64,000 nt of DNA from Okamejei kenojei. Taxonomy: Eukaryota. Shown here one piece after another: positions 2,096-58,900 of this stretch. How positions within the stretch are numbered: position 1 is the first letter of the stretch; every line of letters starts with the position of its first letter. The notes beneath the pieces are model-generated. The model was not told the DNA's origin, did no database searches, and saw only the letters and a list, made by a program, of their open reading frames with translations. The position numbers were made by a program, and so were the translations under genes. The stretch lies in assembly GCA_035221665.1 (NCBI GenBank), contig CM069174.1:10230001-10294000 (forward strand), in the 5' to 3' direction.

Positions 2096-2099
2096 ATTA

Positions 2100-2483
2100 T
2101 GTTAGAAATATTTTTCCCAACAAACGACAGTCACAGAAATTTAGATCCAATGTTTAATACATGAGAGAGGATTGCACAGAGTACAGGCGTCTAAGTGAGT
2201 CTCTCTGTCGAAGCAGTGCCCAAACTCATTCTTTTATACAATGGAGTAAACAAGGATGTATCGACCACAACTTAATCTCATCACGCAGGTATCGGACACA
2301 ACTTAATCTCATCACACAGGACCACAACTTAGTCTCGTCACACAGAGTACAAAGTACAAAACCATAGACAGCACATAATGTCATCCCAAGATAGACTTGC
2401 CCATACATGATTCTTAAAGGTACAATCCCCGATAATAACTATAGGAATGAATTTTTATATCACTATCTCCACCAAATCTAATA
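2100..2483 (-). repeat. ERV 5' LTR (~384 bp)
   Basis: Ends in CA next to the PBS. ATTAAA at 2153-2158 and TATAAAA at 2232-2238 (- strand); three ~26-31 bp tandem U3 repeats at 2258-2346. The outer boundary is inferred from TCTAATA (2477-2483), a one-mismatch inverted copy of TGTTAGA. Confidence 0.75.
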
Positions 2484-5400: not shown

Positions 5401-6364
5401 CTGGGGTTCCTCCACCAGCTTTTAATTCTTGTTCTGCAGCTAGTAAGGACGTATTACATTTGATTTTCCCATCTAAACCTTTGATTGTATATTGTGAACG
5501 TCTGGGACTCCTGCACCAATCCCTGTGGCACACTACTTCTCACAGCCTCCCAGCCCAAAAATGACTTGTTTATTCCTGTTTGATCATGTGCCTGTTAACA
5601 CACATGCATGGTTGGAGTATTGGTTATCACCAATCCTGATATCTGGCCTAGCTCGTCCTACCAACCTGTCGCTCAACCTCTCTACGATATTAGAATTCTG
5701 ATGTCCATTCCTACTGGCACCTGATTTTCTGGATGTTTACTTTGCACACCATGCAATAGCGCAAAGCCTGATTTTCGTTTCGCAAGACATCTTTGGCCTT
5801 CTGCACCACTGAATTTTCCTTGAACATAACATTGACCTGCATTCCACAGATAGTTCAAACTGCCTAAACGGGTGTCATGGTAGGCACAAGGCCTGTAATA
5901 CAGAGCACCAAGAAAAATGGCACGCTCTATTTTCGCTTAAGGACTGTCTGTTGCAGGACGAATAAAAAATGAAGCATAGTTTAAAAGAAAAATGAGCCAT
6001 TCAGCCCAACTACCCATCTACTTTGGGAGTCTTGTCCGTTCCATCTGTTTGGTCCGTGTCTCTACTTTCTTTTCTCATGTACTAGTCCAGTTTCTTTAAA
6101 GAAATAAGGCGTACAGGTGCAGCGTTGCGCCCTGATTTCAACATTCAGTCTGCAGCAATTAGGAAATACAGCTCAGTCGGGAGGATCATTTGTAGAAAGG
6201 TGAAATAAAATCTGACAATGCTGGAAATACTCAAGGTTTATCAGCATCTTCGGAAGGAGGAACAGAGTTCATATTTCAGGCCGAAGACCTGAACTCTGTT
6301 TCTTTCTTCATAGATGCTGCCCAACCTGCTGAATATTTCCAGCACTTTAAGTTTCTATTTCTGT

Positions 6365-6503
6365 CTTCTTCTTCTTTCATGTGGCGTGCACAGCCTAAAG
6401 TTGTTGGATAACTTGTTCTATTTGATCTTCTGTGTGTGCACGTCGAGTTGATTGTATTAGTCGAAACAGGGCGGACCACGTGAAAGTTGCAATCTTCCAC
6501 CCC
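6365..6503 (-). repeat. Dispersed ~135-bp repeat with (GAA)n tail, copy 1
   Basis: Closely similar to 50703-50840 in the opposite orientation; family not recognised. Confidence 0.8.
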
Positions 6504-7539
6504 CCTCTACTTCCGTCATCCAGCATCGTTTGGTGGTGGTAGAGATCAGAAAACCTGCAGGGAAGGTTACTCATTGACCCACTACCTGCTAATTCAAGGA
6601 GTTTAGTGTATCCTGTCCATGTATTTTGTTTACTCCCAATGCTGTTTTAGTGAATCTACTTCGAAGGAAACTGGTGGTGCTTATTTTTGTCTCTGAACTG
6701 TATGGAAATAAAATAAATTCACTGTACTTGGGTACATGTGACAATAAAGTACTATTGAACCATTAACTGAGTTGGACCTGTGGCCACGATTGGAATGCTG
6801 TGCAAGGTGAAATTAAGTTTGCAATAACAAACCTTTAGCCAACTACAATAGGAAATGTATTATCAAGGAAGCAGTGCATTGAAATCAGTCCCAATTAATT
6901 GGTTCTGGCAGAGAATTGCACCCGTAATGTACAATTGAGCTACAATGCAAGGGTGCAAGAGTTGCCTTGTGTTTGCATTTCACTTTGATTTTCAAAGGAC
7001 ATTTCTCCCGTCAGTTCCTCACACAGTCTGTTGTCCAGGCTTTGGGGCTGTTTTCATTCAGCATTGATGAAGCCCAAGTGTGCCACAGGACCTGTGCTGA
7101 AGAGGTGCCCTGCTTTCCTGAAGCTGTCACGTGACAATAAAGGCAGAACTCTGTGCAATCTGTGGCATGGAAGTTCGTTTGAACGGTAGCACAAAATGAT
7201 TGCTGTTGTCTAAGCAGTCGGAGTTGTTCCTTGCCCTAGCATTTTATTGGTCTGTCCCACAGTTGCTGCCAGAAGTTGACAACAAGCGGGCAGTCGACGT
7301 AAAACCCTGTGTGTTGCCCTCTCGACCGAGTTGAACTTTTGTCCATTTCAGTCTCTTCAGCATTGTGGCTTTCTGCTCTGGGTTATGGATACAAGCGAGA
7401 AACACTCTGATCCCTGAGCCTGTTTATTTCTGTCCCTTTCCGTATCTCTTTATACATCTCTCATTAATCCAGGAGGCATGAGGCCAAAGTGTCTGATTGA
7501 GCAACTTGGGCCAGATCAGAGAATAAAACGTTCCAAACT

Positions 7540-8240
7540 ATTCTAAGTCGGGTCTAGACTGCACCATGCTCCTGAATACCAAACTATTAGGTGGGCTGCT
7601 CATTTTGCCTCCTATTTTGGTTCTCTCTGCTGGACCCACTAGCAACGCATCTCCTAAAGCTGCCAAGGTAGGTCTGGAGATGACCTGCTCTCGAGTGTCC
7701 GCTGTTCCCGCTGCCATTCTGCGGAAGAGGGTGGCGAACGTATGATGTGGCTCGTTGACTGTCATGCCCTCCTCATAGTTGGGTTTGATTTGGAGTTGGG
7801 AATTAACCCAGTGTCCATCCATTTCCTCCTGCGGGGCTCTGGCACGGTGACGTCCTCCGATTTTTGCGCTCATTCAACGTTTTGTCTCCATGGGGTTTAA
7901 CCTCTTGCACCAAGATCGTTAAAAGACATGGTGCAGTTTCCTGTTCCATTTGCCTGAGCTGAGTTAGCTGAGTAAGGAAAGCAACCTTGTGCTTTGCCAC
8001 CTGCCATTTTAATTGTTTCCCCCAGGTGCTAATTGCTAAATTTCTGTAACGCCGAACTGTGGAAGAGCGACAGCACTTCTGAATGTGACCTGACTCCAGT
8101 GATGGATTTTGGAGGAGGTTCCCTGTTGTAGATCCAAAATGCCTTCCCTATGGTCATGAACGGTGACGACTCTGAACAAAACTAAATTAGTGCTGCTGCA
8201 GTTTCTGCTCCTGCCATGCAGGGAGCTCATTTTTACCCAT
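7540..8240 (-). mobile_element. Possible decayed LTR-retroelement gag-like fragment
   Basis: Overlapping short - strand ORFs with coding-like sequence (FLTQLTQLRQMEQETAPCLL...); no diagnostic motif. Confidence 0.25.
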
Positions 8241-9049
8241 CTGTCTGTCCAGATGTAGTGGGTTTTCTACATTCTTCCTGCAGATGCTTGGTTTTCAACA
8301 TTGTTTTGAAAATTGGCATTATTATAAAGAAATGCAGCAGTCATTTTTTTTTGCCAAACAAACCAGATAGCCCTTTTGATGGATAAGTATTAGCCTGGAT
8401 ATTTTTTGTGTTTGGGGAGCAGAAAACTGCTCAGATTTCTGCTCTGGGATTTTCCCTGTGGGCCACTTTCAACATCTTGTCTGAAGGACAGCACATCTAT
8501 CCTTGCAACATGGCCGCGGTACTGCTTTCCTGCATCAGCCTGGATTCTGTGATCCTAGAGCGCAGCTTAAATCTACAACCACCTCACTGCTGAGGTGACT
8601 GGTGCAGACTGCTTCCTCTACTAAAAAGCAATGTGGGTCATAATAGGTCCTGGTTATGGTTGCCTTTTCAAATTGTGTTTTTGATTGAATATACAATGCC
8701 AGCTCTGGCCAGAGTTTTGGGCATATGTGTAAAGGGCTGACGAGACAGGCTTGGTTTTCCTGTAGCATCAACTTGCCTCATCCCAGTTTGTTGGGCATGT
8801 GTGACTCCCCTAGTGCAGCGGGTGAATTCACTGAGTGGGGTGGCTGTGAACCAAGAGAAACCAAGTTACTGAGAGGTGTCGGTGTCTATGCAACTGGTCC
8901 CTGGCCTGAAGAGTTGCTGAAGCAAAATTGTTAGGGAGAAACTGTCTGGAAAGAGGTCAGCTGAAGTAGGGAGCATTTCTAATGTCTAAATTGACCAGTC
9001 CAATCTAATGATCACTGCAGAATCAAACTATGCCTCTGCTTTCTTTCAG

Positions 9050-9100
9050 GCTCCCTGGTTCTGGGACACACGACATTGCTGGTACAACTACCCATATCAG
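9050..9100 (+). CDS. CERS5: Ceramide synthase 5, internal exon (51 nt)
   Basis: ttctttcAG|GCT...CAG|GTgag; APWFWDTRHCWYNYPYQ. Confidence 0.95.
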
Positions 9101-10782
9101 GTGAGAGCCGAATAATGGAGGTGCAGTCATAAAATTGTACAACATAGAAACACGCCATTTGGCCCACCTCATCAACTGTCAACTGTGATGCCCATGTCTG
9201 CTAATCCCATTTGCCTATATTAGCCCCGTATCCCTCTATGCCTTTCTTGACTAAGTTCCTGTTGAAATGCCTTTATATTGTTTCAGCCTCTACAACCACC
9301 TCTGGCAACCCGTTCCAGTCAACCACCACCCTCTGTGTGGAACAATTTACACTTCTTCCCTTAAACTTGTGTCCTCTAATTTTGGACTCTCCTACTCTGG
9401 AAAAGAGACTAACAAACTATCTATCCAAGCCCCTCATAATTTGATGAAAGTTACTCCCTCAGCCCCTAACATTCCAGTATGAATATAACCAGCCCCCTAA
9501 TCCAATCTCTTCTGGTAACTTAAAGCTCTCCACTCCTGGCAACTTCCTGGTGCATCTCTTCTTTCTATTGCCCCTACATCCTGTAGTGCAGTGACTAGAA
9601 CTGTACACAGTACTCTTAAGTGCAGTCTAACCAATACTTTACTGGTGCAACAGTTGGAGTCATTCTTGTTGGGTTCCTGTCCTGCAGTTTGCCCTTTCCC
9701 CCATGAACTGAACACTGTGTCGACGAGTATTAAGCAGCAGAATTTACTGGTTTCGAATTACTTATGGTTATTATTGCCAAATACGTCATTAATAAAACTG
9801 CACCCGATTTGTGATAATAAGTGAGACTAATTTATAATGTGGGGCCCTTTTAAAGGATTATATAATGTAACCCTATTTTAAAAAAATCAGAACATGTTTT
9901 AAATGACCTTCCTGAAAAAAATCCTATGGAATTCCTTTACTTGCCTCTACATCTGGGGACCAAGATTTGAACTCCATCTAGGCTCGAGTCATAGAGCTGC
10001 ACAGCAAAGAAACGGGCATTTGTCCCAAGTTGGCCTACTAGGTTAGTGCCATTGCCCTGCATTTGGCCCATACCTGTCTAAACCCTTCCTACCCAAAAGT
10101 CGTGGAATAATATAAAATGCTGGAAAAAATCAGCAGGTCAGATGACTTCTATGGGGGAGAGAAGCCACATTAATGTTACCTGTTGTCAAAGTCAAAGTCA
10201 AAAGAGTTTATTGTCATGTGTCCCTGACAGGACAATGAAATTGCTGATCATTCTTCAAAACTCTGGCATAAGAATGTGACACTAAACTTTTTTAAAAGAG
10301 CACTATGAATCTTAATGCTTTTTAAAAGCACCAGCTGTGAGATTCTTTGCTTGCATACCCAAGGTATACAAACGAAAGAAAAAAGACAAAGTTCTGGAGT
10401 AAATTTCTCCTCTGCAAAGGGTCACTTTAATCACTTCCAGCCTGTGTTACTTAAGGAAAACTCCCTGACATAAACTCTCATTTTATATATTTAAAAAAAG
10501 ATTGAAGCCTTTTGAAATTTTGGAGATCAATAAAGCCTTTTATACAACAGTGTGAAATATGATCAACATATCAGGTTCAATACAATAAGAGCTATCAATT
10601 AGTTTTTTTATGTAGTTAAGAGCAATATTGACTTTTTTATGAAGAAAAGTCTGATCTAAATATGATGCGTTCAACCGTGTGATTTCAAGGTTCTCATTAG
10701 CGTGATATTTGTGTTTTATACAGGGACCTTTTATGCATGAGACTATACATTGGCAAATAAATGTTTTCTCCTTTTCCTACAG

Positions 10783-10875
10783 CAACTGGAATTTGACATG
10801 TATTATTATTACATAATGGAGCTGTCATTCTACTGGTCGCTGATGTTTTCACAGTTTACAGATATTAAAAGAAAG
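10783..10875 (+). CDS. CERS5: Ceramide synthase 5, internal exon (93 nt)
   Basis: cctacAG|CAA...AAG|GTaag; [31 protein letters not shown]. Confidence 0.96.
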
Positions 10876-11619
10876 GTAAGCAGCTGGATTTCCTATTGAG
10901 TTCCAATCCTATTGAGGTGTAATCTCTTCTAAATTGGTTGGAAACTCCAGCATTGCAGATGCTGGTCTAATTACAGTTTTTCTTTACTTAATCACTTACT
11001 ATAACAGGAGAGGAAGGCTATTCGACCAATCAGGTCCACTCAAGCCCTGAACACAATAGTCTAATTTTCACCTCATTATTTCCCTGTAGTTTGACAACTT
11101 ATCAATTTGGCAGTTTTATGTTACATTTATTTTTTCGAAAGAGCTGGCTCAAACCTGACAAGCTAAATGTCTGCCTTCTGGGCTGGGTTCTGTTACTGAA
11201 AGCTTCTCTGTAGGGAATGGGGAACATGTCCTGCAATGTTCTGCTTTTCTTTTGTGATACTAGCATCCTAATGTTTTATTTATTTTTTCTAATTGGAGAA
11301 CCATTTTGAATGCGAGATCAACTTTTAACTTGCATATGCTCAATTTTTAGATAATTAGCCATTTAAGTACTGTGTAAGTGGGTGGGGGGAAAAACATTGA
11401 GCACTTCATTTTATCTAGACCTTATTTTTAAAAACACTTTGCTCTGTCCTCTTTATTTGTGCCACATTGTTTTGACAAAGCCTCTTGACAGCAGGTGCAG
11501 TACTGGACTGCATGAAGCTGCTGAAGTGTTTGATTATGTGATTGCAGCTTTCCCACCTTTCATAAAGGAAGCAAAGTTGAACCAAAACCATTTTTGTAGT
11601 GATTGGTTTGAGGATGAAT

Positions 11620-12025
11620 TTCTGTGAGTATTATTCTCAACGTGGGAAAAACGAAGGAGATGGTTGTTGACTTCAGGAGGGCGGGAAAACAACGCCATAC
11701 ACCTCTGCACATCGATGGAGCTGATGTGGAAAGGGTCAGCAGTGTGAAGTTCCTAGGACTCCACCTGTCGGATGACCTGACGTCCACGACCAACACCACA
11801 GCACTGGTCAAGAAAGCCCAGCAGCGACTACACCCTCTCCGAAGACTACAGAAAGCAGGTCGCCCCACTGCACACCTATGAACTTTTTATAGGGGGACAA
11901 TCGAGAGCACATTAACCTAGCATCACCTCCTGGTTCGGGAGCTGCAAAGGCGTACGAACGGTACCAACTGGACAGGATTGTGAAGACCGCCAGCAGGATT
12001 ATTGGTGCTCCACTCCCTTTATTGC
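11620..12025 (+). mobile_element. Non-LTR retrotransposon RT C-terminal fragment (Rex1/Babar-like)
   Basis: LNVGKTKEMVVDFRRA...VERVSSVKFLGLHLSDDL...VKKAQQRL; frameshifted continuation FYRGTIESTL. Confidence 0.8.
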
Positions 12026-15000
12026 TGAGACCAGATCCATAAGAGTCAATGAGCATGTTTCACCTTTTCTCAAGGATGTCTTCTAAAACCTTTGAGTCTT
12101 TTCCTCAATTTAATTGTAGTTTGATGTAAAATCACAATCATAGACGGGTAACTCATGGCAGGTGGAAGAGGTGGTTGGGTTGAATAGTATCGATTCATTT
12201 GGGAGGAGGCAGGAGATGTTGATGAGGGAGAGAGGAATGGAGGCACGTGTGGTTGGAATTGACTGGGGAAGATACGAAGCTGGCTTAATTGAAGCATAAA
12301 TGCATGGGCTGGTCAGGCCAGATGGCCTGTTCCAGTCTTGTGAAGCCCTTGAATTTGTTAAGGAACTAACAGGCATGCAGTTTATCTGATATTCTTGAAC
12401 TTTAGGAACGCCTTTTTACAAGCTACGACTTGGGAGATTACTGTAGAAGAGTAAGGATAATTTGAAAGATTGCAAGCTGATTTTTCTTTTTACAAATGTT
12501 CTTAAAGGAGAATAGATACATTTTTCCTGACTAATTGCAAATGGGTCACCGTGTCTGACTGCTGCCGTTCTGGGACCATTTCTAGTTGGTATGTTGTCTG
12601 TCATTGTCATTGTGTCCCCAAATGAATGGTGACATTTGCAGATGACATTGGAACAGTTAATTCTTTAAAAGATCCTGAGCAAAGAGATAGCGATGAGATG
12701 GGATGTACAGTTGATAATGTGGGAAGGTGTTGCATGTTACTTGCAGGTGGTGAGTAAAAATTAATGTGGCAAATAGAAGCTGTGAGCAATTTTCCTTCCT
12801 AGTTATACAATAGCGACAGACACAAATCCTCTGCAATGGATTTGTACAGATCACACTCCAGTGTGAGTGGGTTTTAATCTAAAGTGGTTAGCAGATTAAA
12901 ATGGTTTATCTCCTGCTTAATGTAAAAATCTATCATCTTTCATTTGGATAGTGTCTTGTGGCCACTCAGCTGCCTGTCGTATGAACGCAATATCTGATAA
13001 ATTAATTATCTTGGCTTTTAAATTAAAGACTGTGTTTGCAAGCTGGTCTCAGCTCAGAAATGGTCACAAACATGACCGCTCTGACTGCGAGTTTAATTCC
13101 GATTCGGTTGTCCCTTTTTTAGAAAGTATGATTGTGACATTTAATCCTTGCCAGTTCTTTCCAAAATCTAAGCAGAGAACTTGGGGGAATCCAAACTTTC
13201 CTATTGTCTAGAACATTGTATCAACTGATGGCATCAGCTAATTTTTTTTAATTCAAATGTAATTAAAAACATAAGTGTTTCAAAGTTACTCTTTGGACTT
13301 AAAACAAAATTAAAAATCCTTCTTTGATTTTTATGAATCCGCTGAAGAAATGTAAACCCGTTGGTGATATGGTATTGCACTCCTCCCATACTGGTGGGCC
13401 TTTTTTAATTAACTCCATCTCCTTTTCTTCCTCACTTACCCTTGAATGTGCCCTGCTCTGCTTTCAGGTTTAACTCCACAGCTTATTGTGTTTGTACTGA
13501 TATACATTGTTACAGGATCAGCTGAATTCCCCACCAGTGACAGTTGAACTAGTGGAAGTTATCCCCAAACATCTGGTCATACAGCAGCTGGAGTCTCCAA
13601 CGCTCTGTGCCACAGACTTTCAATGTGTACACACATTCTTAGTTTTTTCTTTCCATTCCTCTTTCCTCAAAACTATTCTGTCCAGGAATGGATGGATAAA
13701 AAGATGACAGAATCTCTTCATTCTCTTCCTTCTGGGTTTTAACGGGTTCAGATCAAAAACAGGCCAGCAATCCTCCTGGCTGCGGAAGGTGCAAAATGCA
13801 GAGAATGCGGGGGGGGGGGGGGGGGCAGCAAAGAGAGTGTTTATGTGTTGAGGACAAATTGAGAGTTTTTGACCAAATTGGTTATGTGCATTTTAAAAAA
13901 AACACTTCACTGACAGGGCTTTACAGTTTAAGTCTAAACTGGGGGCTGAAAAGAACAAGGTCTTACTTGGATTTATTTTAAATGTTTCATTCCAATAAAA
14001 CTCCATCTTGATTATAAAAGGCAACCTGTGCAGAATTAATATTTTCATTAATTTTGCTTTAAGAAGTGGCTTTTAAAACATGCAAGCTGAGTGCTGCCAA
14101 TCCCATGTGTTTGTGGGATGTGTTCTTGATAGAGACCAAAACTTGTTGCCTGACTTGACCGTGCATGTGTGGATAACTTTGCTGGTAAACTCCATCTTGT
14201 ACCTATCAAGCTCTTTTTACCGGAAAGAAGATCCCATTTTCCATCGTGCTCGCTTGTCACATTTCCTCCTTACCCTTATGTATTATTTGTCTGGACTATT
14301 GTGCTGACTGATTCATTCATCTGCTGTTCTAAATGGCTCCCTCTTGACTTGCTCTTTGTCATCACCAGTTTCAACATTGCTGTCTGTGTGCTACTTGTAG
14401 CCAGGGCTGTTTGCACTTACCTCGCACTGGGCGTAGAGTTTGTCCAGCATTTTGTGTGTCCCTTGCCTCTTTAGTTTTCTGCTTAATTAGCTTCCTTTTA
14501 ATTCTAATCATATGGGGCTCACTTGCTGCATTTTCCAATTTCCTCTGTACTCTCTTTAGAAGCTGAATTTGATTTTAACTGCTATCTCGACTCCTTGAAC
14601 GTTAAGGACTTGCAGCGCATTTGTATTATTTTTCTAAAGTTGCTGACCAAGGGAAGGCACTTTCTTTTGCAATAGGGAGCTGCATTAGCCTGCAGGCCGT
14701 CGCTGTGGGTGGGAGGCTGTGTGCTTGTGATTGCCCAAGCGATGGTTTCAGTCAAAGATTGTTTCCAGTGAGAGGTATCAAACAGAGGCTAGGCGCTTGG
14801 TCTCTGGAATATCTCCCAGGTAGTGTTCGAAGGCCTCTTGTGGTCTGGCTCTTTCTTTCACTTGCTCACTCTGTTCATGAGTGTCATGAACACAGGCACA
14901 TTTTTTGGAGTGAACCATGGGGTTAGGTTTAGCAGAGGAACATGACACTGAGGAAAAATATCAGCCATGGAGACTCAAGAGTGCAGATGTTGGAATCTTG

Positions 15001-15894
15001 AGCAAAAAACAGTGCTGAAGGAACTCAGCAGGTCAGGCAGCATCCATATAGGGAAATGGACAGAGTACTAAGAAAGGACATGTGGCTGTAGCAGCGAGTC
15101 TGGATGAGAATATGGTCGAGCAGTAAGAATCATGGAGGGGGAGCAGTCGGAGAGTACTGAAGAAGGACATTTCCCTCCACAAAAGCTACCTGAAACGCTG
15201 ATTCCCAAAAGATCACCTATGATTTAATCGCAAGGGGCCCAAATGGCCTCGTTTTTATTTCTCATGTTCTTTTGGGCCATGTACGATTGTTATCATAGCT
15301 TGCCATTCCAAAGTAGCAGACCATGAAGAGGGCCACTTACACTGGCCTCTGTGGATGCCTCGGGGCTGTCTGATGTTCCTGTCTGCTACATTGTCAAAAG
15401 CATTAACCCATGCTTCAACTGATTCATTTAAAAGTCAGGCAGTTTAAAAGCTAAAATAGAATAGAAGAATTTTGAGCAAACATTCTTTGCATCCATAAAA
15501 TATGATATAATTTCTGGGTTCTGGCTATGTTTGACTCTCATCCAGACAAGCGGAATTAAATGCCAGTTTCCTTGTACTTGATGTTTTGGAAGTTGGAGAA
15601 TCCTCATCGCAATCCCCTCCTCTCCCATTTGAATGAAATGGTTGGCATGATAAAATTTGTGTAGCCAGATGGAGCTAGTTCACTTTTCATTTCTGGAGTT
15701 TTAATCACATTTTTATTGGAAGATTACATTTTCTGATGTCTTGTGATTTAAAAAAAAAAATGTTTTTGCTTTTGGACAGTGCACTTCTATTGTCACTCAG
15801 AATGTGAAGATTTATGTCAACTTTAGAAGATTAGTTGAATGGATGAGTTTCTGATGGCAAAATTTTCATCAGAATTAAACATTTTTAAATGAAT

Positions 15895-16095
15895 GACGCG
15901 TTCTCTCCGTGATTTGTGTGTTTCCTCCGGGTGCTCCGGTTTCCTCCCGCATTCTAACATGCAGGTTTGTAGGTTAATTGCCCCCTGTGGGTAGGAAGTG
16001 AATGGGAAAGTAGGATTATGTAGAACCAGCGTGAGCAGGTGATCGATGGTCGGAACAATCCTGGTGGGCCAAATAGCATGTTACCATGCTGTAAT
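15895..16095 (+). mobile_element. V-SINE fragment (core and tail)
   Basis: GTTTCCTCCGGGTGCTCCGGTTTCCTCCC V-domain motif. Confidence 0.7.
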
Positions 16096-17053
16096 TTTCA
16101 ATTAGGTTCAATTCTTGAGATAATTGGAATCTGTAGGGATAGAGATTGAGCATTGCTTTGGCTAGTTGGTCAAGTGATTTTACACAGTAAGGGACTTTCA
16201 GCCTATCTGGCTTCGCAGACGACACCAGAGATTCTTTGCGTTTGTCTTTTTGAGTGTTTGGGAAGATTTTTTCCATTTTGCTTCCTTTCACTCGGGGGTC
16301 AAAAGCCAGGAGGTTGGTGAAAAAATAAATTTGTTGATATGATATTAACGTGAGAGGTTAATTTTGTGGTGAGATTTTATACAATAGCAATAATAGAATT
16401 TCTTAGAGTTAAACAGTTGCAGATAATCAATGCGTGTGGTACTTCATTGCAGATATCCAGTCTTCACTTTGCATTTGTGGTATTTTTACATATATATAAG
16501 CATTCTGCACTGACAGGCATTTTGCTCCCTATAATCACCACCACCTCCACCTTACACCGTTGTTTAATCCCTCATGCCTTTGTATTTGTTCTCTCCTATC
16601 CTTTTCCCCTTCTCTGCATCCCAAACCTGAAACAAACTCTCTTTCTCACCCTCCACAGATGCTGCCTGACTTGCTGAACATCTGTAGCATTTCCTGTGTT
16701 GATTTCAGATTTCCAGCATCTGCAGCATCTTTGGTATTCTGAAAAAGTTGCTCTTGTTCAGTTGAATATTTCAGGGCTATGGGCACAGCAGATATTTTGC
16801 ATGCTCTTACTACAAGTTCTTCGGCTTGTTCTTCAATCCTTTCCAGTCCCTACGGTTTGCATTAGAGTTACAGTGCTTCTCCCAGTCAAAGATTCTCCCA
16901 TCCCCTCTCCAAAAACTGGTGTGTTGATGCGTGGAAACCTGGTAACTGCAGTAGGAGGGAGAAGAGGAGACCCCAGCTGTAGCTCCATCCTATTTGCAAC
17001 GTGTAGTTTGTGTTAATAATCGACCGACCTCTGCCCTATTGTTCTCTTTGCAG

Positions 17054-17182
17054 GATTTCCTCATTATGTTTCTTCATCACCTTGCAACGGTCGGATTGAT
17101 CACATTTTCTTACGTCAACAACATGGTGCGGGTTGGAACACTCGTCATGTGCCTTCACGACACATCTGATTTCCTTTTAGAG
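17054..17182 (+). CDS. CERS5: Ceramide synthase 5, Lag1p-motif exon (129 nt)
   Basis: ttgcAG|GAT...GAG|GTgag; [43 protein letters not shown] with the conserved HH and HDxSD residues. Confidence 0.97.
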
Positions 17183-17427
17183 GTGAGAATATTTTGTAAA
17201 ATGCTGCCTGCAAGGAATCTGCGATTCTCTGCGGAGTGGAGGGTAATTGGTTCTCAGTCCCATCAGACAGTGACATTTAGCTGTTGTCGACTGTCATCAG
17301 CACAGTACAAAACTTACAAAGAAAGCCCCCACAGAAAGTGAAAACTGTGATAAGAAGGCAGGGAAAAAATCCCATCTGGGAATAAGTCTAAAACTTCAGT
17401 CTGATAACCTAGTTCAAATAATGGTTA

Positions 17428-18996
17428 CAGTGCCCTCCATAATGTTTGGGATAAAGACCAATCATTTCTTTATTTGCCTCTGTACTCCACAATTTGAGAT
17501 TTGTAATAGAAAAAAAAAATCACATGTGGTTAAAGTGCACATTGTCAGATTTTAAAGCTTTTTATACATTTTGGTTTCACCATGTAGAAATTACAGCAGT
17601 GTTTATACCTAGTCCCCCCCCCATTTCAGGGCACCATAATGTTTGGGACACAGCAATGTCATGTAAATGAAAGTAGTCATGTTTAGTATTTTGTTGCATA
17701 TCCTTTGCACGCAATGACTGCTTGAAGTCTGCGATTCATGGACATCGCCAGTTGTTTGGTGTCTTCTCTGGTGATGCTCTGCCAGGCCTGTATTGCAGCC
17801 ATCTTTAGCTTATGCTTGTTTTGGGGGCTAGTACCCTTCAGTTTTCTCTTCAGCATATAAAAGGCATGCTCAATTGGGTTCAGATCAGGTGATTCACTTG
17901 GCCACTAAGGAATTGACCATTTTTTAGCTTTGAAAAACTCCTTTGTTGCTTGAGCAGTATGTTTGGGATCATTGGGTTACACAAAAAGCTGGAGAAACTC
18001 AGCGGGTGCAGCAGCATCTAAGGAGCGAAGGAGATAGGCGACGTTTCGGGTCGAGACCCTTCTTCAGACTGGTCAGTTTTGAGGCAATTGAAAGATGTTG
18101 ATGAACTTGATCAGAGAGGATGTGTCTATACACTTCAGAATTCATTATGCTGGACTACCATCAGCAGTTGTATTATCAATCTGAAGATAAGTGAGCCATG
18201 CTTGGGTCCCTGAAAGGAGTGACAAGTGTTGCATTCAAGGGAAAGTGCAAGGGAGCCATTACATGCGGGTGGAGGGGTCAGGCCTGGCGCGGATAGTTGT
18301 ATTTGCACCCCTGAGCCTCCATCAGTGGGGGAGTCGAGCCTCAGAGAGTTTTAAGAATGAGGCCATGTGATGACATGGAGCAGATGTAGACCCAGATAGG
18401 ACAATGAAATTCTTGCAATTTGTCACAGTTGAGGTTTTGGTATGCTTTGGATGACTTGGCAGGGGCACTGGTACCTTCTCTCTGGGCTCCATATTTTGTT
18501 CTTTGAGGGTGAGGACCAACTCACTCTGAGGAAGAACCGATAAAGTTAATCTGGTTGTCCTGGAGAATGGAATGCATCTGTCCACAAGGGGGATAGGATG
18601 GCCCTTTTCCAGAACTGTGGTTGCTCTTTTAAGTAGGCTTATTGGCAAACTGTAACCTGGCCATCCTATTTTCGCAGCTAACCAGTGGTTTGCATCTTGC
18701 AGTATTTCTATTCATGAAGTCTTCTGCGGACAGTGGTCATTGACAAATCCATACCTGACTCCTGAAGATTCAGGTGTGGGGGGGGGGGGGGTACTATGTA
18801 TAAACACAGCTGTAATTTCTACATGGTGAAACCAAAATGTATAAAATACCCTTTAATACAATCTGACAATGTGCACTTTAACCACATGTGATTTTTTTTT
18901 TTTTTTTTTTTTTTCTATAACAAATCTCAAATTGTGGAGTGCCGAGGCAAATAAATAAATGTTGGGTCTTTCTCCCAAACATTATGGAGGGCACTG
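17428..18996 (-). mobile_element. Tc1/mariner DNA transposon of IR/DR type, defective
   Basis: TA|CAGTGCCCTCCATAATGTTTGGGA...TCCCAAACATTATGGAGGGCACTG|TA; ~200-bp TIRs; inner direct repeat at ~17630-17650. - strand remnants ARCKPLVS...YLKEQPQFWK, WPSESPDLNPIEHA and RRLQAVIACKGYATKY*. Confidence 0.93.
17974..18070 (-). mobile_element. Penelope-derived short element with minimal hammerhead motif, nested in the Tc1
   Basis: - strand AGTCTGAAGAAGGGTCTCGACCCGAAACGTC at 18040-18070; near-identical to the copies at 33076 and 33962. Confidence 0.8.
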
Positions 18997-21742
18997 TATG
19001 AATGACTTTACATTTGAATTTTGTGATTTACAAGCCTGCAATTGTTTAGAAACATTACCCCCCCACACTCGAGGCCCCCCACCTAAATGTGATTTGCACG
19101 TATTTAGATGACAAAAAGTGTTTATTAAATATTCCTTAAGATGAACACCTCAGATTCGAAAGGAAACTGAAGTTTGGTCCTTTTGTTCTCTGTAGAATTT
19201 CATCAAAGGTTTCCACCCAGCAAGTGTTTCATTTCTCAGGCTTGTACTTGCCAGCATCAATTTAACTTTGCTATTTGAAGTTTTGTGTGGACTTTGCCCT
19301 CCTAAAACTTCAACCCATGAGATACGTCACTAACCCAACCTCGCCAAACCCAAGGCAGAAGCTGCTCCAAGCTGGGCTGTTGATCCATGTCGTATTCTGA
19401 TGTGGCTTGGAATTGAACTCCCATTATGGAACAGAGGGAGGCCATTTGGCCCTTTTGAGCCTAATGACTGCAGCAATCCTGCCAGATCTTTTTCCTTGCT
19501 CTTTCCGCATAAATCTAAGATATTCTATCTCATGAGCCAAACAAATTTTGAAAGCCCTGATTGACTCTGTTTCTACCACGCATACAGTCAGTGAGCTCCA
19601 GATCACTGCCGATTTCCTTGCGTCCCCCTTTAAAGCTGTGTCCCTAGTCCTCAAACTGCCCACCAATGGGAACAGCTATCTTCTCCCCCCCCCCATCTCA
19701 ATCTGTTGTGATATCATGCACATTTCTGTTCAACCTCCTCTCAATCCTCTTTGCTCCAAGAACATTATTTCCAGTCTTCTGACTGGCATCACTAATGCCA
19801 TTTGGCACGGCATCTTAGGGCCATGACATCTGAGCTTTGTGCCCTCTGACTGCCCAAAACCCACAAATGCAATGCTTTCAGCTTTCTGATCCAGAATTGC
19901 AATTGTGTGAGAGGTTACAATTCCCAATCTATGCCAGGATGAGTGCTTTAAATAAAAGGAGTGCACAACCATTTTTTTTTTTTCTCCTCGCCTAACTTAC
20001 CATAAAATACATGGAAGTTAATAATATCCCACAGTATCTTGCAAAGCCCAAAGCCACACAAAGAAAATGACCAGAGTGTAAATGATCCTGGTTATGTTGG
20101 TTACTTTCCTGAGTTAAGTGTGGATGGTATTCATTTGGGTGGGGGAGGCTGATTTGCGTAATGAATTGGGCTGTATGAGAACTCTGCAATTTCTTCCAGT
20201 CTTGAGTGCAGAGCAGTTGCCCATAACAAGCCGAGATGCATCCCGATCGGATGCTTTTCATGATGTGTTTGTAGAAATTGGTAAGAGTCATTGGATACAT
20301 GCCAAATTTCCTTCAGAGGAAGTAAAGGTATTTATGTGCTTGGAGAAACAAGGAACTGCAGATGCTGGTTTACAAAAATGACACGGTGCTGGTATCTCAG
20401 CAGGTCAAGCAGTTTCTCTGGAGAACATGGGTGCCATTTCAGGTCGGGACCGTTCTTCAGACGAGTCCTGACCCGAAACATCACCTATCCATTTTCTCCA
20501 GAGATGCTGCCTGACCCGCTGAGTTACTTCAGCACTTTGTCTTTTTTTAAATTGATGTGCTTTTTTGATCGTGGTGTTGAAATTGCTGGTGACAGTTATA
20601 CCTAGGAACTTGAAGCTCTCAAAATGGGGTGGGGGCAGAAAGCTTAGGACTTGCACCAAATTGAATTTGAGGTGAAGGTATGTGACAGTGAAGGAACAAG
20701 TGTGCAGTGAACAAAGTCTGAAGGTTGGGTGAAAGTGTCTGGTTAGATGAAAGCTGCAGGGCTGGAAAGGCGATGGTCCAGGCCTCTGAAGTGGAATGAT
20801 TATGTTGCTGATTGCCTGGGACCTGGAAACCATGGTGTTTGGCGAAAACGTCAGCGAATGATGTGTGTTTCTGCTCTGCGACCTTGGGTTTCTGAATGAG
20901 TTGAAATCTGTTTTAGATGTAGCAGAGGAGGCTGTTCGCAGATGGGTTTAAAACAAAACACTTCAGTGGCAGAAGGAATGAGATGTCTTAGACAGCTTGT
21001 GGGATGGGAGACACTTGAGGGAGCAGGCTGCAGGTGTGGAGTTTGAAGCAGAGGTCAGACGGGATGCCCTGTTACACTCCTGCATCTAACAGGAGCGATG
21101 GGATCTGTGCCTGAAGCATGATCTTCTGTGAAGCCAAACAGGATGGTGTTTGCCGGTCAAGTGACCGCTTGTATTCCATCTGTAAACATTTCTGGATTAA
21201 TTTTGTGGAATCTTTTCTTTCCCAGCGCTGGAAAGTAGTTGGAAAATTGCTTGTGTGATCACTCTTGCAGATGCACACAATGTTGGAAATTTCTCAGCTG
21301 AAATTGTTTAGTGGTTGTCTCGATTGTGGTTGAAGAGTAATGAGGCTCACAAAACTAACAAAGCATTTTGCTTCTCTCGTGTTCATAGCACCCTCCAAGC
21401 AGCCCAGTGATGTATTGCTCGTTTTATTTGTCTGTACTCGCCACAATTTGCCAATTTACTCAACAAACAGAGCATAAAGCGGAGGTTGAAAATGTCCTTT
21501 TCAGGTTGAGTCAAAGCTGGACTGAAGTAAGAGTACTGAGGGTTGGTGCAGAGCTGCCCAAATCTCAAATGTTCCAAATTAATCTCGAGTGTACTGAGAA
21601 TGACGCTATCCAAGGGACAGGGGGACTAGTTAACTTTTTCCATTTGGTGACAGTTTTCTCAGATGGCCTTGCTTTAATCTCCTGCCCCATCAGCTCTACG
21701 ACACAGTGCACTAATGAGCTCTTTCTCTGTTTTGCCTTCCAG

Positions 21743-21849
21743 GCTGCTAAATTAGCCAATTACGCCAAGTATCAAAGACTTTGCGACTCATTATTTGTGA
21801 TGTTTGGTTTTGTCTTCGTCAGCAGTAGGCTTGGCATTTACCCATTCTG
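21743..21849 (+). CDS. CERS5: Ceramide synthase 5, internal exon (107 nt)
   Basis: ttccAG|GCT...TTC TG|GTgag; AAKLANYAKYQRLCDSLFVMFGFVFVSSRLGIYPF(W). Confidence 0.97.
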
Positions 21850-22464
21850 GTGAGTAATAGCTGTGTGGGGAGGTTTGGACCTCTAGCTGAGATCCTGGGG
21901 AAGAGAGAAACTGATCAATTTATTTTTGATAGTTTAGTTTTCTGATGAATTCTGCATTGGTGTAATAATGTGTATAACAGTTCAATTTACTTGAAAAAAT
22001 GCACTTGGATTTTCTAAGATGTGTTGGGAATTATAGTGAAGAAGCTTGGGGCATTTGAAAGAAAACGTTTCCCTTTTGATTGTATATGCCAGGTTGCTAG
22101 CTACATATTACATACGGTCTCCCTCCTAATGGCAACGCTTTAGAACTGAGCTAAAAAAAACAAAAGTGGCTGGAGGAACAGGCAGCATCTGTGGAGTTAC
22201 TCCAGCACTTTGTTTTTTGCTCAAGATTCCAGCATCTGCAGTTCCTTGTGCCGCCTTCAGAACTCTAGTGGGATCAAATTCATAAAATGAAGGGAGCAAG
22301 AAAATGTTTGTATCCTGAAGTCATTTCCATGACACACTGCCTCCACTCAGTACAACAAAATAAGTCGCCATTATCAATGCCAATTAACATTCTTTACCAC
22401 CTGCTCTCCCCTCCTCAAAAAAGGACTAGAAGAGCTGTGACCGACAGCATTAGTGACCCATTTA

Positions 22465-32870: not shown

Positions 32871-33075
32871 GAGATCCAAAATGCGATGAGATGTGTGCAA
32901 ATGTGTGTATCATTCCCCGTGCCATAATATAAATCTACATTTTTTTTAAACTTCGGTCTGTGTTTCTAAGTTTTAAAAATTATTGCATTTTTTTTCATGC
33001 AATGGGAGTTTTTACACAGTTGCAAAGATGGCCTTCGAAAACTGGAATGCTGTTCGGGCAAATCCTCTACTAAAG

Positions 33076-33168
33076 GGTACACAAAAGGCTGGAGAAACTC
33101 AGCAGGTGCAGCAGCATCTAAGGAGCGAAGGAGATGGGCGACGTTTCGGGTCGAGACCCTTCTTCAGA
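33076..33168 (-). mobile_element. ~93-nt Penelope-derived hammerhead-motif element with 11-bp TSD
   Basis: Flanked by CTCTACTAAAG (33065-33075 and 33169-33179); hammerhead motif at 33140-33170. Confidence 0.85.
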
Positions 33169-33591
33169 CTCTACTAAAGCATAGTTTTGTGTGTGTTCAC
33201 CCCCCCGAGGAGTTGGAAATTCTGGCATTTCCATGAGGGATTCATTCCTCAGTGTGCTTTGTGCAAGTTGCCTTTCAGTAGGCTTTCCGTACGTTGTTTA
33301 ACGTACCAGCAGACGAGAAGCATGTGCTGTGGGAAGCAAGCTGACCACCTGGGAGGAGCCCGAGGCACATGAGCGACTGATACAGAGAATGTGGCTGCTT
33401 GCAGCCTGGCCTGTTGCAGACTGCCACCTGCTGGCTTGTGTGAAAGGACAATCACCCTCTATATCCCCTGCTGGTCCACTGGTGCTAGTGGCATCGATGG
33501 GGCCGGCAAATCCAAGAGTGAATGAGGTTTCTGAGTTGCTACCTGCTGTGCCCTTTCTCAAAACCAACCAAATAACAACCTCAGTCGCTCA

Positions 33592-34568
33592 ACTATCCCG
33601 CTTTTGGCGGGATATTCCCGCTTTTTAGGTTCCCTTCCCGCCATCCCGATTTGTACCCTAATTATCCCGCTAAATTCTTCCTCCCGTGGTGAACGCCGGC
33701 GCCATGTGTCCCCGGTTTGCCGGCCTGCGCGATCAGCGGCACTTTGCCGGGCCCTAGTGGCCGCGCGTGCGCAGTGGGGGAGGGTTGCCGGGCCCCAGTG
33801 GCCGCGCGTGCGCAGTGGGGGAGGGTTGCCGGGCCTGGCGCCATTTCGAGCCACGCCACGCCCGGCCCAGAGCCCGGGCGGCGCCGGCCCGCGCGATCAG
33901 CGGCACTTTCTTGCCGCCAGCCGGCCGCCAGCCGGCCGCTCGCGGCAGCCCCATCACCGGGGGTACACAAAAAGCTGGAGAAACTCAGCGGGTGCAGCAG
34001 CATCTAAGGAGCGAAGGAGATAGGCGACGTTTCGGGTCGAGACCCTTCTTCAGCTAGAAGAAGGGTCTCGACCCGAAACGTCGCCTATCTCCTTCGCTCC
34101 TTAGATGCTGCTGCACCCGCTGAGTTTCTCCAGCTTTTTGTGTACCCTCGATTCTCCAGCATCTGCAGTTCCTTCTTTAAAGCCCCATCACCGGGCCTCC
34201 ACCCCCACCCAGTGCGCAGGCGCAGACCCGCCGGCAACCTGGCCAAGTGCGCATGTGCCGCACCCGCCCGCCGGCAGCCCGCTGATCTGCACCAGTGCGC
34301 AGGCGCATAGCCGCCGGCAACAACCCCAAGTGAGAGAAATTAAGTGAGTCTAGTGCCAAGTTTATCAAAGTTTAACAAAGAATTATAAATGTTTCAGCAT
34401 ACATGTACCTTTTTCACATTTTGGCATTTAAAATACTTCTTCACAATTTAGAATTTGTGACATGGGACCCCGAATAGGGCGCCGCGACATATTATGAATT
34501 TTCATTTAAAAATATGAATTTTGAGGGGAAATATTATGAATTTTGACAATCAAATGTTGGGAGGTCTG
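33592..34568. mobile_element. GC-rich non-autonomous element (possibly hAT-like) flanked by a 22-bp direct repeat
   Basis: AAATAACAACCTCAGTCGCTCA at 33570-33591 and 34569-34590; internal ~39-bp tandem repeat at 33756-33836; right end GTTGGGAGGTCTG. Confidence 0.7.
33962..34180. mobile_element. Palindromic Penelope-derived element with 15-bp TSD, nested in the GC-rich element
   Basis: ~90-bp perfect inverted arms (33961-34051 and 34057-34147); TSD AGCCCCATCACCGGG at 33947-33961 and 34181-34195. Confidence 0.88.
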
Positions 34569-43182: not shown

Positions 43183-44150
43183 GTGCCAGGCACCCACCAC
43201 CTTCTATGTTTATAAGAAAACTTGCCCCACACATTTCATTGAAACTTTGTTCCTCTCACCTTAAATAAATGCCCTCTCATCTTTGGCATTCCAACCCTGG
43301 TAAAAAAGTTCGGAGGCAGCTATAGACTCGAACCCCAAAGTCCCTCTATCCATCACTGTTGTTGAGGGTCTTGCCTTACCTTCCTGTTACATTCGACCTT
43401 CCATAATGCAACAACTCGCGCATGCTCAGTATTAAACGCCATCTCCCTCTTTGCCATCTTTATGGTTGTTCTATATCCTGCTGTATACTTTTGACATCCT
43501 TACTGTCTGTAACTCCACCAATTATTGTGTCATCTATCCTTGCATCAAAGTCATATACTATCACAAACAACAGAGGTCACAGCACAGATCCCTGTGGACG
43601 CAAATGGCCTTAGACCTCCAGCCTGAATAACACCCTTCCACCACAACCCCATCTTCTGTGAGTAAGCCAGATGTGAATCTAAATAACCAAATCACCCTGG
43701 ATCACGGCCCCACAGCAGAAGCGTCCACGTCGCGGGGCTGGTAACTGGAAGTATCCTGAGCTAATTCTGCTACCACCGTCATCTATTGTGACAAGTGATA
43801 GCTTCCACTGATTGTCGCTGGAAGCTTGTGTCCATTTCAAGACGGACGATGACAGCAAGGTCAACATTTGTAACAAGATGGACACAAAAAGACCCTGGAT
43901 CCCATGCATCTTAATCTTCTGGATCAGCCTACCAAGAGAGACTTTATCAAAAGCCTTATTAAAATCCATGAGGACAACATCCAACCCCTACCACCATCGG
44001 TCACCTCAAAAAAATAATCTAAGTAGTAAGGCATGACCTGCTGTGGACAACGCCATGTTGACTGACCCTAATTAGCCCATTCTCCTCCAAATATGAGTAA
44101 ATCCTATCCCAAAGAATGCTCTCAATTAGATTCCAACCACGGATGTGAGG
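43183..44150 (-). mobile_element. CR1 LINE RT fragments, degraded
   Basis: VDVVLMDFNKAFDKV...LIQKIKMHGIQG and PQGSVL motif. Confidence 0.8.
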
Positions 44151-49017: not shown

Positions 49018-50702
49018 GTAGTTTCAAATCTCATATTTTAATTTCTGAAATGGTGGTCTATTTTGAAGAATAGTATTATGTAACAGGTCAAAGAGCCCCA
49101 TATAGAGATTGATTTGTTTTTGGTATACTTCTCATCCTTTTGTATTCAAGCCAAGAGAGAACTTTGTTGGCGAGGAGACAGATCATCTGCCGTTTAAGTC
49201 ATATCCAAACTATTTTTCCGTGTGCACACATCTGAAATAAGTCAACCTCGCACCCTCACAATTTTTGTACATCCGATGTACCACTCAGATGTTCTGCGAC
49301 TGCTGGGGATACACGTCACATAGTTGGGAGCACCAATTGTAGAATCATCCTTGCCAAATCCTTCACTTTTTGAAACCATTACTTTGACTTTGATTTATTT
49401 TAGGTGCTTTTTAATGTTTCATTTTGTTTATAATTAAGCCTATTTCTTATTAGTTTTATTTATTTTTACAATTCATTAAATTACAACCTGAAATCTACAA
49501 TCACAGACACACTCAGCCCCCATTTAAGGCGAGTTGCTGAACACACACACAATTTGATTTGATTGTGTTGTAACCCACCCTCTACAAACTTTCAAAGTGC
49601 AATACAGTCTTCCTTTAACTCCTGTATATGTTTGAATAAAGCACCAGCATCACATAGCACCATTTGGCATGACAAATTCCTTAAGACAAGCAGAGAAAAG
49701 GGCTGGTTTTATCTCTGCGTTCTCGAGTGCTCAGTGCCCCCCACACACATATGGCTCTGAAACCAGAATTCATGTCATACTGTAGAACAGCTTCACCATG
49801 TAGCCTGCCAAATCTGAGCACAAATATATCTAAATTGAAACAGCCAAGAACTTGTTGCTGTTTCAATTTAGTGACACTTATGGAGATTGAAGGATGAAAC
49901 ATGAAAGGAAATGCCCCCAAAATAATGAAAAATAAAACACTGAAAAATTCAACCCCTGCTTATCTTCTTAGATAAAAATTACTGGAACAATGCTCTTTTA
50001 TCTATTACTCATGGGACCATCAATTGTCAGAAAGTTTCCACAGCCAAAGAGATTGGATTAGATGAAGCTATTGTTTCAGCCACCTCATCATAATTTACAC
50101 AAGGATTCTATTCAATGGTTATTTTAGATCACAACACAATTTAAAGAGCGATTTGTAGAATTCCTATTTGTTCCGGTGTAGAAAGAAGGCTGTTTCATCA
50201 TCTGATAGAAACAGAATTTAAAAAACATATTTAGACACAAAGTGCTGGAGTAATTCAGCGGGTCAGGCAGCATCCCTAGAGAAGACAGATCGGTGACATT
50301 TCAGCTTGGGACCCTTCTTCAGACTGATTTGGCAGAGCCACATGGTGAAGCTGTTCTACAACTTGAAAGTCTGACTGAAGAAGTGTTAGAGATGCTGCCT
50401 GACCCGCAGAGTTAATCCAGCAGCCATTTGTGTCTTTTTTTTTAGCACACCAGTTCTTTGTTTCTATTTTTTTAATCCTTTTTCAGAGTCCTCTTGGTTT
50501 ATCCATGAAACACATACGTTTTCACAGGAGTTATGTGAATTAGATAGATCGCGATTCTTGCCTTTTTAGTCCAGGGTTGGATAACATAAGGCTCTGGGAT
50601 AAGATTTCATTAATACCACCGTGTACGATTTGTCTTTGTCATTGATGTATTCAACAGTCTCTGGATCCTGGTAATTAGTTAAGCCAAGTGAATCAACAAT
50701 GC

Positions 50703-54294: not shown

Positions 54295-54520
54295 CTGGTA
54301 GTTTACACCCCAGCGGTATGAAAATTGACCTCCAATTTCACGTAGTCCTTGCTTTCTCCCTCCTTCCCAGCTCTCCCTAACCCCACTGTCTCCGCCTCTT
54401 CCTTTCTTCTTCCCGCCCCACATCAGTCTGAAGAAGGGTCTTGACCCGAAAGGTCACCTGTTCCTTCGCTCCATAGATGCTGCCTCACCCGCTGAGTCTC
54501 TCCTGCATTTCTGTCTACCG
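54295..54520 (+). mobile_element. Penelope 3' end with hammerhead-like motif
   Basis: Matches 58652-58900; CTGAAGAAGGGTCTTGACCCGAAAGGTC at 54428-54455. Confidence 0.8.
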
Positions 54521-55809
54521 ATGACCTCACTGACGCACCTTGGGACCACAAAAGTGCAGGTTCTGGAGTAGGCCCTTTTTCTCTTTGTATATCAGCCAGA
54601 TTCTCAACTGCTCAAAATTGACAGGACTCCAAAACTCCCTCTCAAACCACGTAATCTCAGGAATCCACCTCTCGGCTGATCCCTTTGTGTACTCCTGACA
54701 GAAGTGAACGATGCGAGTCAGGCTTTTGCAGTGGGCTCAACTACGATGCCTTCTTCAGTCCAAATCCTTCCAACACTCATCACTAAGGAAGACACAAAGT
54801 GCTGGAGTAACTCAGTGGGTCAGGCAGTATCTCTGAAGAACATGGTTAAGTGACGTTGTGGGTCAGGACCCTTCTTCTGACTTATCCATGTTCTCCAGAG
54901 ATGCCTGACCTGCTGAGTTACTCTAGCACTTTGTATCAAACCTTATCTTACACCTTTTTGCATTTCATCTCTGGCCTTTGTTCAACCATCCACCTATCAC
55001 TCTCCACGCTTTGTCCTGCCTCCATCCTCTTTTCCAGTTTTCTTCCCCGTCTCCCCCCCCCCCCCCATCTCTCACAATTGGGCCCCGAGCGAAACGACTC
55101 TAGAGACCCTGTCTGACCCGCTGAGTTACTGCAGAACTTTGTGTCTTTTTGTTTGTAAATCAGTATCTGCAGCTCCTTGTCACTAAGGCTCGTATATGAG
55201 GCACGCCTATTCGGTGGGACCTCTGGATGGTCGCCATGGAATTGTACATTTGTGGCGTTAATCTCTTACTAAGGCAGTTAAGTTTATCTCAACTCTTCTC
55301 ACAGACTCCTACATCTTTGAACAAATGAGACCAAGTCTCCCTCAAGGCATTTTACCGTCGGTTTTTCAGCGGCAAGTCTCCCTCTCGAGCGCAGTCAAAC
55401 GGTTGGCGCTTCTGCACCCATAACCGTCCACACTGCTGATTCGCTGCCTGTGTTGCGCGGTCATGTAGGTAGGCAGAGGGCGGTGGAGGCAGGTTCTCTG
55501 GATACTTTTGAGAGCAAGATAGGACTCTTAAAGATAGTGGAGTCAGGGGATATGAGAAGGCAGGAACAGGGTACTGATTGTGGATGATCAGCCATGATCA
55601 CATTGAATGGCGGTGCTGGCTCGAATGGCCTACTCCTGCACCCATTGTCTTAAGTCGACACTGCAATTCAATCACGACTGATCCATCTCTCCCTCCTAAC
55701 CCCATTCCCCGACACTGTACAAACCAATTTTACTTCAGTGCCATCTGCAAACATGCTAATCACACCGTGTATGTTCCCATGATGAATATGGTAATAAAGC
55801 TAAACTGAA

Positions 55810-57769: not shown

Positions 57770-58900
57770 ATTGCATTGGTGCTACCTCCAGCATCCACGC
57801 AGAACTCACTGACTTAATGCATTTCACCACTAATTTCCATCCGACACTCAAATTCACCTGGACCATTTCACACATCTCCCTACCATTTCTAGATCTCACT
57901 ATCTCCATCGCAGGTAACAAACTAACTAACCAACATCCACTATAAACTCACTGTCACCCATGACTATCTGGACTACACTTCTTCCCACCCTGCTTCCTGT
58001 AAGGACTCTATCCCCTACTCCCAATTCCTCCATCTATGCCACATCTGCACCCAGGATGAGGTATTCCAGACCAGGGCATCAGAGATGTCCTCATTCTTTA
58101 GGGAACGGGTCTCCCCTCTTCTATTATAAATGAGGCTCTCACCAGGGTCTCCTCTATATCCCTTGTCCTCACCTTCCACCTTGTCAGCCGTCGCATACAA
58201 CATATAATCCACCAACATTTTCGCCACCTCCAACGGGATCCCACCACTGGCCACATCTTCCCATCTCCTCCCCTTTCTGCAGAGACCGTTCCCTCCGCAG
58301 CTCGCTGGTCATTTCCCACCCAAACCACCCCCTCTCCTGGCACTTTCCCTTGCAACCGCAGAAAATGCTACACTTGTCGCTTTACCTCCCCCCTCGACTC
58401 CATACAAGGACCTAACCCCATCTACTGCATCCACTGTTCCAGGTGTCAACTTCTCTACGTCGGCCAGACCAAAGAGCAGGCTTTGCAATCGCTTCGTCCA
58501 ACACCTCCGCTCAGTTCACACTAACCAACCTGTACTCCCAGTGGCTCAGCACTTCAACTCTCCCTCCCATTCCGAATCTGACCTGGGCCTCCTCCATTGC
58601 CAGAGTGAGGCCCAGCGCAAATTGGAGGAACAGCACCTCATATCTCGCTTGGGTAGTTTACACCCCAGCGGTATGAACATTGACCTCCAAATTTCAGATA
58701 GTCCTTGATCTCTCCCTCCTTCCCCTCGCCCTTCCCGGCTCTCCTACAAGCCTACCGTCTCTGCCTCTTCCTTTCTTTTTCCTGCCCCTCCCCCCTCCAC
58801 ATCAGTCTGAAGAAGGGGCGACCTGAAACGTTGCCTATTCCTTCTCTCCATAGATGCTGCCTCACCCGCTGAGGTTCTCCAGCATTTTTGTCTACCTCCA
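57770..58900 (+). mobile_element. Penelope-like element remnant (RT C-terminus, GIY-YIG endonuclease, 3' repeat)
   Basis: NFHPTLKFTWTIS, PFLDL, YLDYTSSHP, IPYSQFL; IYCIHCSRCQLLYVGQT; HCQSEAQRKLEEQHLISRLGSLHPSGMN; 3' CTGAAGA...GAAACGTT at ~58806-58832. Confidence 0.9.

Follow-up and report, generated by a model that had tools for sequence, protein, structure and literature searches.

The window considered here, a stretch of 64,000 nt from Okamejei kenojei (contig CM069174.1), harbours on its minus strand at 33076-33168 a solo terminal (pLTR) stub, made up of the final ~95 nt of a Penelope-like element (PLE), itself young, of ~3.96 kb and possessing RT and GIY-YIG. As was noticed in a preliminary description of this DNA, the insert lies within an 11 bp TSD, the duplicates being located at 33065-33075 and 33169-33179. 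Element positions are numbered herein from the first C of CUGAAGA (+1; window 33167, minus strand), such that the T, G and A ahead of it become 0, -1 and -2, respectively, and the predicted cut falls after +28. On this scale the stub extends from 0 to +92, has a tail-less 3′ end, and displays 95.8 % identity to the full-length copy L145. The final base of the left TSD also matches element +93, and the first two bases of the right TSD also match -1 and -2, representing microhomology at the putative RNA start.

Positions 33138-33169 (minus strand) contain a minimal type I hammerhead motif, predicted from sequence. It reads CTGAAGA-A-GGGTC-TC-GACCC-GAA-ACGT-C, just as originally reported, and comprises the core at 33167-33161, stem II at 33159-33148, GAAA, and a palindromic ACGU at 33144-33141, with the predicted cut falling between 33140 and 33139. 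The CUGANGA, GAAA and NUH core is present, along with an extra base ahead of stem II, and the assignment to the Penelope type is borne out by its match to the hammerheads of metazoan PLEs (PMC4209133). The suspected weakness of stem I (~2 bp) is likewise real, with 2 bp found here and 2 bp given for Helix I of the D. virilis Penelope hammerhead (PMC4209133). An Rfam search of the 64 kb window returned no hammerhead match.

Three further near-identical copies of the stub are found in the window. The units at 17974 and 33962 had previously been recognized, and their similarity (96-99 %) is upheld; the accompanying claim that all units stop at the 5′ edge of the core is not, as the first of these (17974-18076, minus strand, element -8 to +94, 99 %, no TSD seen) ends at 18076, corresponding to -8 of the parental upstream sequence. 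This copy sits antisense between two exon-like pieces (~17000-17300 and ~21780-21850, plus strand) that we take to resemble a ceramide synthase (TLC-domain) gene. The second, 33962-34053, had been presented as a unit of its own, and is merely the left, minus-strand arm of an inverted pair (33962-34180), whose plus-strand mate at 34057-34180, with a tail of ~33 nt, is the fourth near-identical copy and had been overlooked.

The inverted pair has its own 15 bp TSD (33947-33961 and 34181-34195), and is itself a passenger within a non-coding TIR element of ~1 kb at 33590-34568. All 40 scored places for the pair (from 970 candidates) are 100 % identical, and identical flanks surround it at each of 30 fetched loci; it therefore represents one old event that was spread by the TIR element. 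A discrete hairpin element, as suggested by 40 identical matches of 222 bp, was accordingly rejected. The host element (33590-34568 and L001-L030) is GC-rich, with 13 bp TIRs in most other copies and TSDs mostly of 6-8 bp; in the window copy the left TIR is clipped and the flanking duplication is 22 bp. A further inverted pair of the stub, in rearranged form, resides in a second multi-copy host repeat (L047, L108, L198 and L205).

Older relatives are also present. Alignment to the parent unit succeeds for five of the six degenerate copies named beforehand (75-89 %), but not for the site near 52175, a very distant relative with no match in a direct search using the parent unit. By alignment to the parent unit, older-subfamily stubs are located at 3473-3561 (plus strand, 5′ end at -2) and 50235-50326 (minus strand, 5′ end at about -3). 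Older-subfamily inverted pairs occupy 20346-20540, with a tail and including the copy at 20396-20540, and 54792-54934. At 54297-54519 (plus strand) an older 5′-truncated copy retains ~130 nt of 3′ UTR ahead of its hammerhead copy (54424-54510), and this upstream sequence is shared with an older Penelope-like remnant at 57772-58888 (plus strand). The remnant contains an RT thumb, a C-x4-C-xx-C linker, a degenerate GIY-YIG, 3′ UTR and a terminal hammerhead repeat; its attachment to Penelope sequence, noted earlier, is correct, as 58803-58888 follows the RT-thumb/GIY-YIG region at 57772-58683. Elsewhere in the window, a fragment at 3-647 (minus strand) bears a resemblance to LTR retroelement pol, in its RT/RNase H region. 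In addition, 43696-43771 (plus strand) scores 42.9 bits as a match to the HDV-like CPEB3 ribozyme of Rfam (gathering score 35; E 3.6e-8), with no CPEB3 exon seen among the stop-to-stop frames of at least 110 aa in the window, and is possibly a mobile HDV-like ribozyme.

Across the 2.76 Gb genome, exact matches to a 34 nt stub core number 43,325, in excess of chance, a reversed-pattern control giving none. Ends were mapped for the first 100 matches, at the beginning of one contig; as both arms of each inverted pair were counted, these are not wholly independent. By context, they comprise 32 solo copies, 34 inverted, 31 longer and 3 flagged as tandem, only one of which (L068) is a true head-to-tail pair, the other two being rejected on inspection. 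TSDs of 8-25 bp, mostly 11-15 bp, adjoin the element or leave short fillers. A total of 26 matches extend from 55 to >1,280 nt upstream into a common sequence (five loci touching the edge of the fetched sequence were extended further), in which RT motifs are encoded together with a C-x4-C-xx-C linker and GIY-YIG.

The parental element is represented at full length by two loci, both of which display partial-tandem pLTRs with an internal hammerhead: L143, a complete copy with a 283 bp repeat-ORF-repeat structure and a 14 bp TSD, and L145, a head-to-tail tandem of ~3.96 kb units that are 99.6 % identical. In the parent, the tail is followed by the 5′ UTR and then by an ATG at +164. Pfam analysis of three ORF pieces identified RVT_1 in two (E 6.7e-8) and a weak GIY-YIG in one (E 1e-3, under the Pfam cut-off), with one having no match; the copies examined are frameshifted. 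The parent is assigned to the Neptune/Nematis type by its linker motif, a CX2-5CxxC linker between RT and EN being given as defining for this type (PMC8557442). Stubs are 96-99 % identical to the terminus of this young full-length element, in agreement with the initial proposal that Penelope produced the copies, and we consider it very likely that they are by-products derived from it. The family is real, young and very abundant, but of an ordinary kind.

The ends of the stubs are far from random, as had been anticipated. At the 3′ side there are two fixed ends, +93 and +126, with 67 of the 100 matches ending at +88 to +95 and the remaining 33 at +115 to +126, the latter including the Penelope tail of ~33 nt. 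At the 5′ side, 42 of 100 end at -3 to +3 (some of the -3 ends stemming from palindromic overlap) and 54 within the 15 nt from -6 to +8, vs only 5 in the adjoining 48 nt (-54 to -7), with 26 at -55 or beyond and 9 at +9 to +20. Ends at +21 to +29, where the ribozyme would cut, number 0 of 100; of the six at +30 to +37, L051 is an alignment artefact and the rest are inversion, duplication or deletion junctions. The 5′ peak is broad (-3 to +5), spanning more than one base. Genome-wide, nested exact counts fall from 29,168 at +5 to 18,545 at -2, 16,311 at -3, 12,533 at -10 and 9,432 at -31, with losses across successive steps of 6.3, 12.1, 3.7 and 1.3 % per nt, the final figure including mutation. 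The steepest loss therefore occurs at -2/-3, at an initiator-like A, and background level is reached by -10; 43 % of exact-match copies (12,533/29,168) extend to at least -10 of the parent.

Conservation of the hammerhead was assessed in 48 of 92 older copies found, the remainder stopping short of the motif. Core columns are 79-98 % conserved, with 69 % for the cut-site C17, and core subfamily variants are absent from these 48 copies. Conservation of the core exceeds that of the upstream flank, but not that of the downstream region from +43 to +89, which overlaps the search anchor. Stem II pairs are retained in 39-43 of 46-47 copies, with one-sided wobbles the frequent changes; stem I pairs are retained in 32/43 and 33/46, and a third pair in 3/45. 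No double covariation in the stems was found among the 48. When modelled, the active dimer has an energy of -6.7 kcal/mol vs -19.7 to -35.3 for the best alternative folds, placing it 13-29 kcal/mol above the best fold, and a transcript across an inverted pair would form a long hairpin concealing the motif. The inserted copies are not derived from cleaved RNA. Metazoan PLE hammerheads are described in PMC4209133 as mostly single motifs of truncated copies with low activity in vitro. A longer stem I activated by splicing was also considered and rejected, as no GTRAG donor was apparent by eye in the 186 nt upstream repeat.

The explanation that we favour, and regard as probable, is that a stub results when RT starts inside uncleaved RNA and runs off the RNA 5′ end just ahead of the hammerhead. 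In this scheme, a partial-tandem transcript would begin at the initiator-like A(-2) of the upstream repeat, so that the priming site would be present twice. Use of the 3′ priming copy would yield ordinary 5′-truncated or full-length elements, use of the 5′ copy a run-off product of 95 or 128 nt, and a second round might generate the inverted pairs. The hammerhead would be a passenger, dispensable for stub insertion. There is in vitro precedent in a lizard PLE, for which PMC11167929 reports that two internal priming sites define the tail, that uncleaved RNA is used with cleavage dispensable, that RNA downstream of the priming sites is required, and that cleavage is protein-assisted; this is a Poseidon-clade element, whilst the skate parent has a Neptune/Nematis-type linker. 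By analogy (PMC11167929), stubs, which lack the RNA downstream of the priming site, are probably inert dead ends.

With regard to A(-2) as the RNA start, the A lies within CCAGTCT, which we take to fit the initiator consensus, although this is a short one. For Drosophila Penelope, a promoter and start site within the pLTR are reported (PMC2377424 and PMC8557442). L174, in which the ORF start is joined directly to -2, is the kind of copy expected when RT switches templates on reaching the end of an RNA. The pile-up of stubs at one point likely marks where the parent RNA begins. Assembled contigs from four of 24 RNA runs, all 24 being contig sets, displayed neither starts nor ends of transcripts and, as they may be DNA, are discounted as a sign of expression. 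Amongst copies without the templated C, the base before A(-2) is G in 992, A in 787 and T in 455 (G 44 % of 2,234). At a +2 control with 852 copies, the corresponding counts amongst the first 100 listed are 23 for G, 36 for A and 41 for T (G vs A+T, p 2e-5; G vs A, p 0.012). A total of 130 loci ending at -2 were then fetched (50 G, 40 A and 40 T), with inverted, longer and TSD-less examples set aside. Untemplated fillers of 1-3 nt are found in 11/18 G, 4/20 A and 2/17 T of the TSD-resolved solo copies (G 11/18 vs A/T 6/37, p 0.0014), and at the +2 control (50 loci) in 4/9 G, 0/5 A and 0/2 T (p 0.45 vs -2). Untemplated G at L1 and SVA 5′ junctions has been ascribed to the cap (PMC3287187), and the G excess at -2 suggests a copied cap. 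It can do no more than suggest one, and was rejected as proof of the RNA start, since untemplated G likewise occurs at +2; terminal-transferase or other non-templated addition can account for part of the signal. No cap-G or start-site stubs were found for Penelope amongst published literature listings, an absence that is not proof; what is new here is the step seen at -2/-3 across the genome, along with the G signal, itself partial.

A bolder extension, which we put forward tentatively and think may well be wrong, is that the stubs are a fossil 5′-RACE, recording a capped RNA that starts 3 nt ahead of the hammerhead core. If true, this start would explain the 2 bp stem I, the ribozyme would be a decapping switch that removes a capped leader of 31 nt, and cap-proximal priming would give the majority product of Penelope transposition.

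The main rival to run-off is a copying stop on a longer RNA, with RT, a bound protein or an RNA fold ending copying just past the hammerhead, at a point where no RNA 5′ end would lie. The breadth of the 5′ peak, which tails to +20, the G fillers at +2, and the many inverted junctions within the hairpin region are all in keeping with such a stop. A hairpin block would, however, be expected 3′ of stem II (~+20), where ends are few (9 at +9 to +20 and none at +21 to +29); moreover, loss is steepest at -2/-3 and at background by -10, and the G excess at -2 is about twice that at +2. We judge a copying stop unlikely, if still a serious competitor.

The proposal made at the outset was of a separate, non-autonomous mini-retroelement family, in essence a retrozyme-like unit of ~95 nt that is self-transcribed and mobilized in trans. 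Its own TSDs of 8-25 bp, the 32 solo copies per 100 matches, the very high copy number and the existence of Penelope-derived retrozymes in vertebrates (reported in 10.64898/2026.07.22.740005) would all accord with this. Yet no 5′ end of 100 lies at the cut site, the 3′ ends fall elsewhere, and the single head-to-tail pair per 100 matches is not the tandem arrangement of retrozymes. Copies form a continuum into the parental ORF, and solo copies include both parental 3′ ends, with the parental tail in 9/32. Nor is there sign of a SINE-like master lineage of its own, as solo and long copies with both 3′ ends have common variants at the two sites tested, +81 and +90 (at +81, T/C/A is 17/7/1 in long vs 18/11/3 in solo copies). 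By analogy with PMC11167929, RNA needed 3′ of the priming site is also missing from stubs. The mini-retrozyme reading is hence not supported, and appears quite improbable.

More doubtful again is that a splice acceptor forms the wall, with stubs arising from spliced RNAs. L145 3499-3520 (element -21 to 0) does resemble a 3′ splice site, with a pyrimidine tract, a branch-like CTGAC and CAG|TCTG, and in D. virilis Penelope the end of an intron coincides with the 5′ side of Helix I (PMC4209133). Solo copies, however, have no common upstream exon, their TSDs adjoin the element directly or with few filler bases, and no GT..AG joint at position 0 occurs among 15 of 103 joints listed (from assembled contigs, which may be DNA). 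Finally, ordinary random 5′ truncation without a special point, which would suit the 26 long copies ending at scattered positions, is refuted by the clustering of 54 ends in 15 nt and a per-base loss of 5-9 times background.

The run-off reading bears upon open questions, namely the role of the Penelope hammerhead and the origin of pLTRs, tails and inverted arms. Internal priming and the use of uncleaved RNA, for which the evidence so far came from in vitro work on a single lizard element (PMC11167929), gain in vivo support from the mapped ends of these young copies, which number in the tens of thousands. The stubs predict a precise RNA start adjoining the ribozyme, and such stubs should not be annotated as retrozymes or SINEs.

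Compared with known systems, the skate motif shares with minimal PLE hammerheads (PMC4209133) the core, the extra base before stem II, G10.1-C11.1 and the palindromic ACGU that stands in for Helix III. Its stem I resembles that of D. virilis in length, with 4-5 bp given for Schistosoma, and its stem II is 4-5 bp. The element PAc (Poseidon, Anolis carolinensis), as portrayed in the available text of PMC11167929, likewise has two internal priming sites ~33 nt apart, roughly 95-130 nt 3′ of the hammerhead, and copies derived from uncleaved RNA. It differs in clade and in that its ORF starts at stem II vs +164 here; that text does not describe a 5′ pile-up for PAc, although its Fig. S2 coverage plots may show one. 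Non-LTR retrozymes, according to PMC7229834 and 10.64898/2026.07.22.740005, are also short and non-coding, with a type I hammerhead, PLE pLTR kinship and dispersed monomers on record, but they are tandem repeats cut from site to site into circles, whereas skate stubs are solo or inverted and bounded elsewhere. A close likeness is to the EN+ PLEs of the Neptune/Nematis type, for which PMC8557442 and PMC3846280 describe RT with a C-terminal GIY-YIG, a CX2-5CxxC linker, partial-tandem pLTRs, heavy 5′ truncation, an inverted 5′ arm, an optional tail of 30-40 bp, a pLTR hammerhead and solo pLTRs (the solo pLTRs, tails and inverted arms being on record in PMC3846280). All of these features are shared by the skate element, including the optional tail (33/100) and inverted context (34/100). 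Unlike in the EN+ PLEs so described, the 5′ ends of about half of the skate copies are gathered in a stretch of 15 nt at the 5′ edge of the hammerhead.
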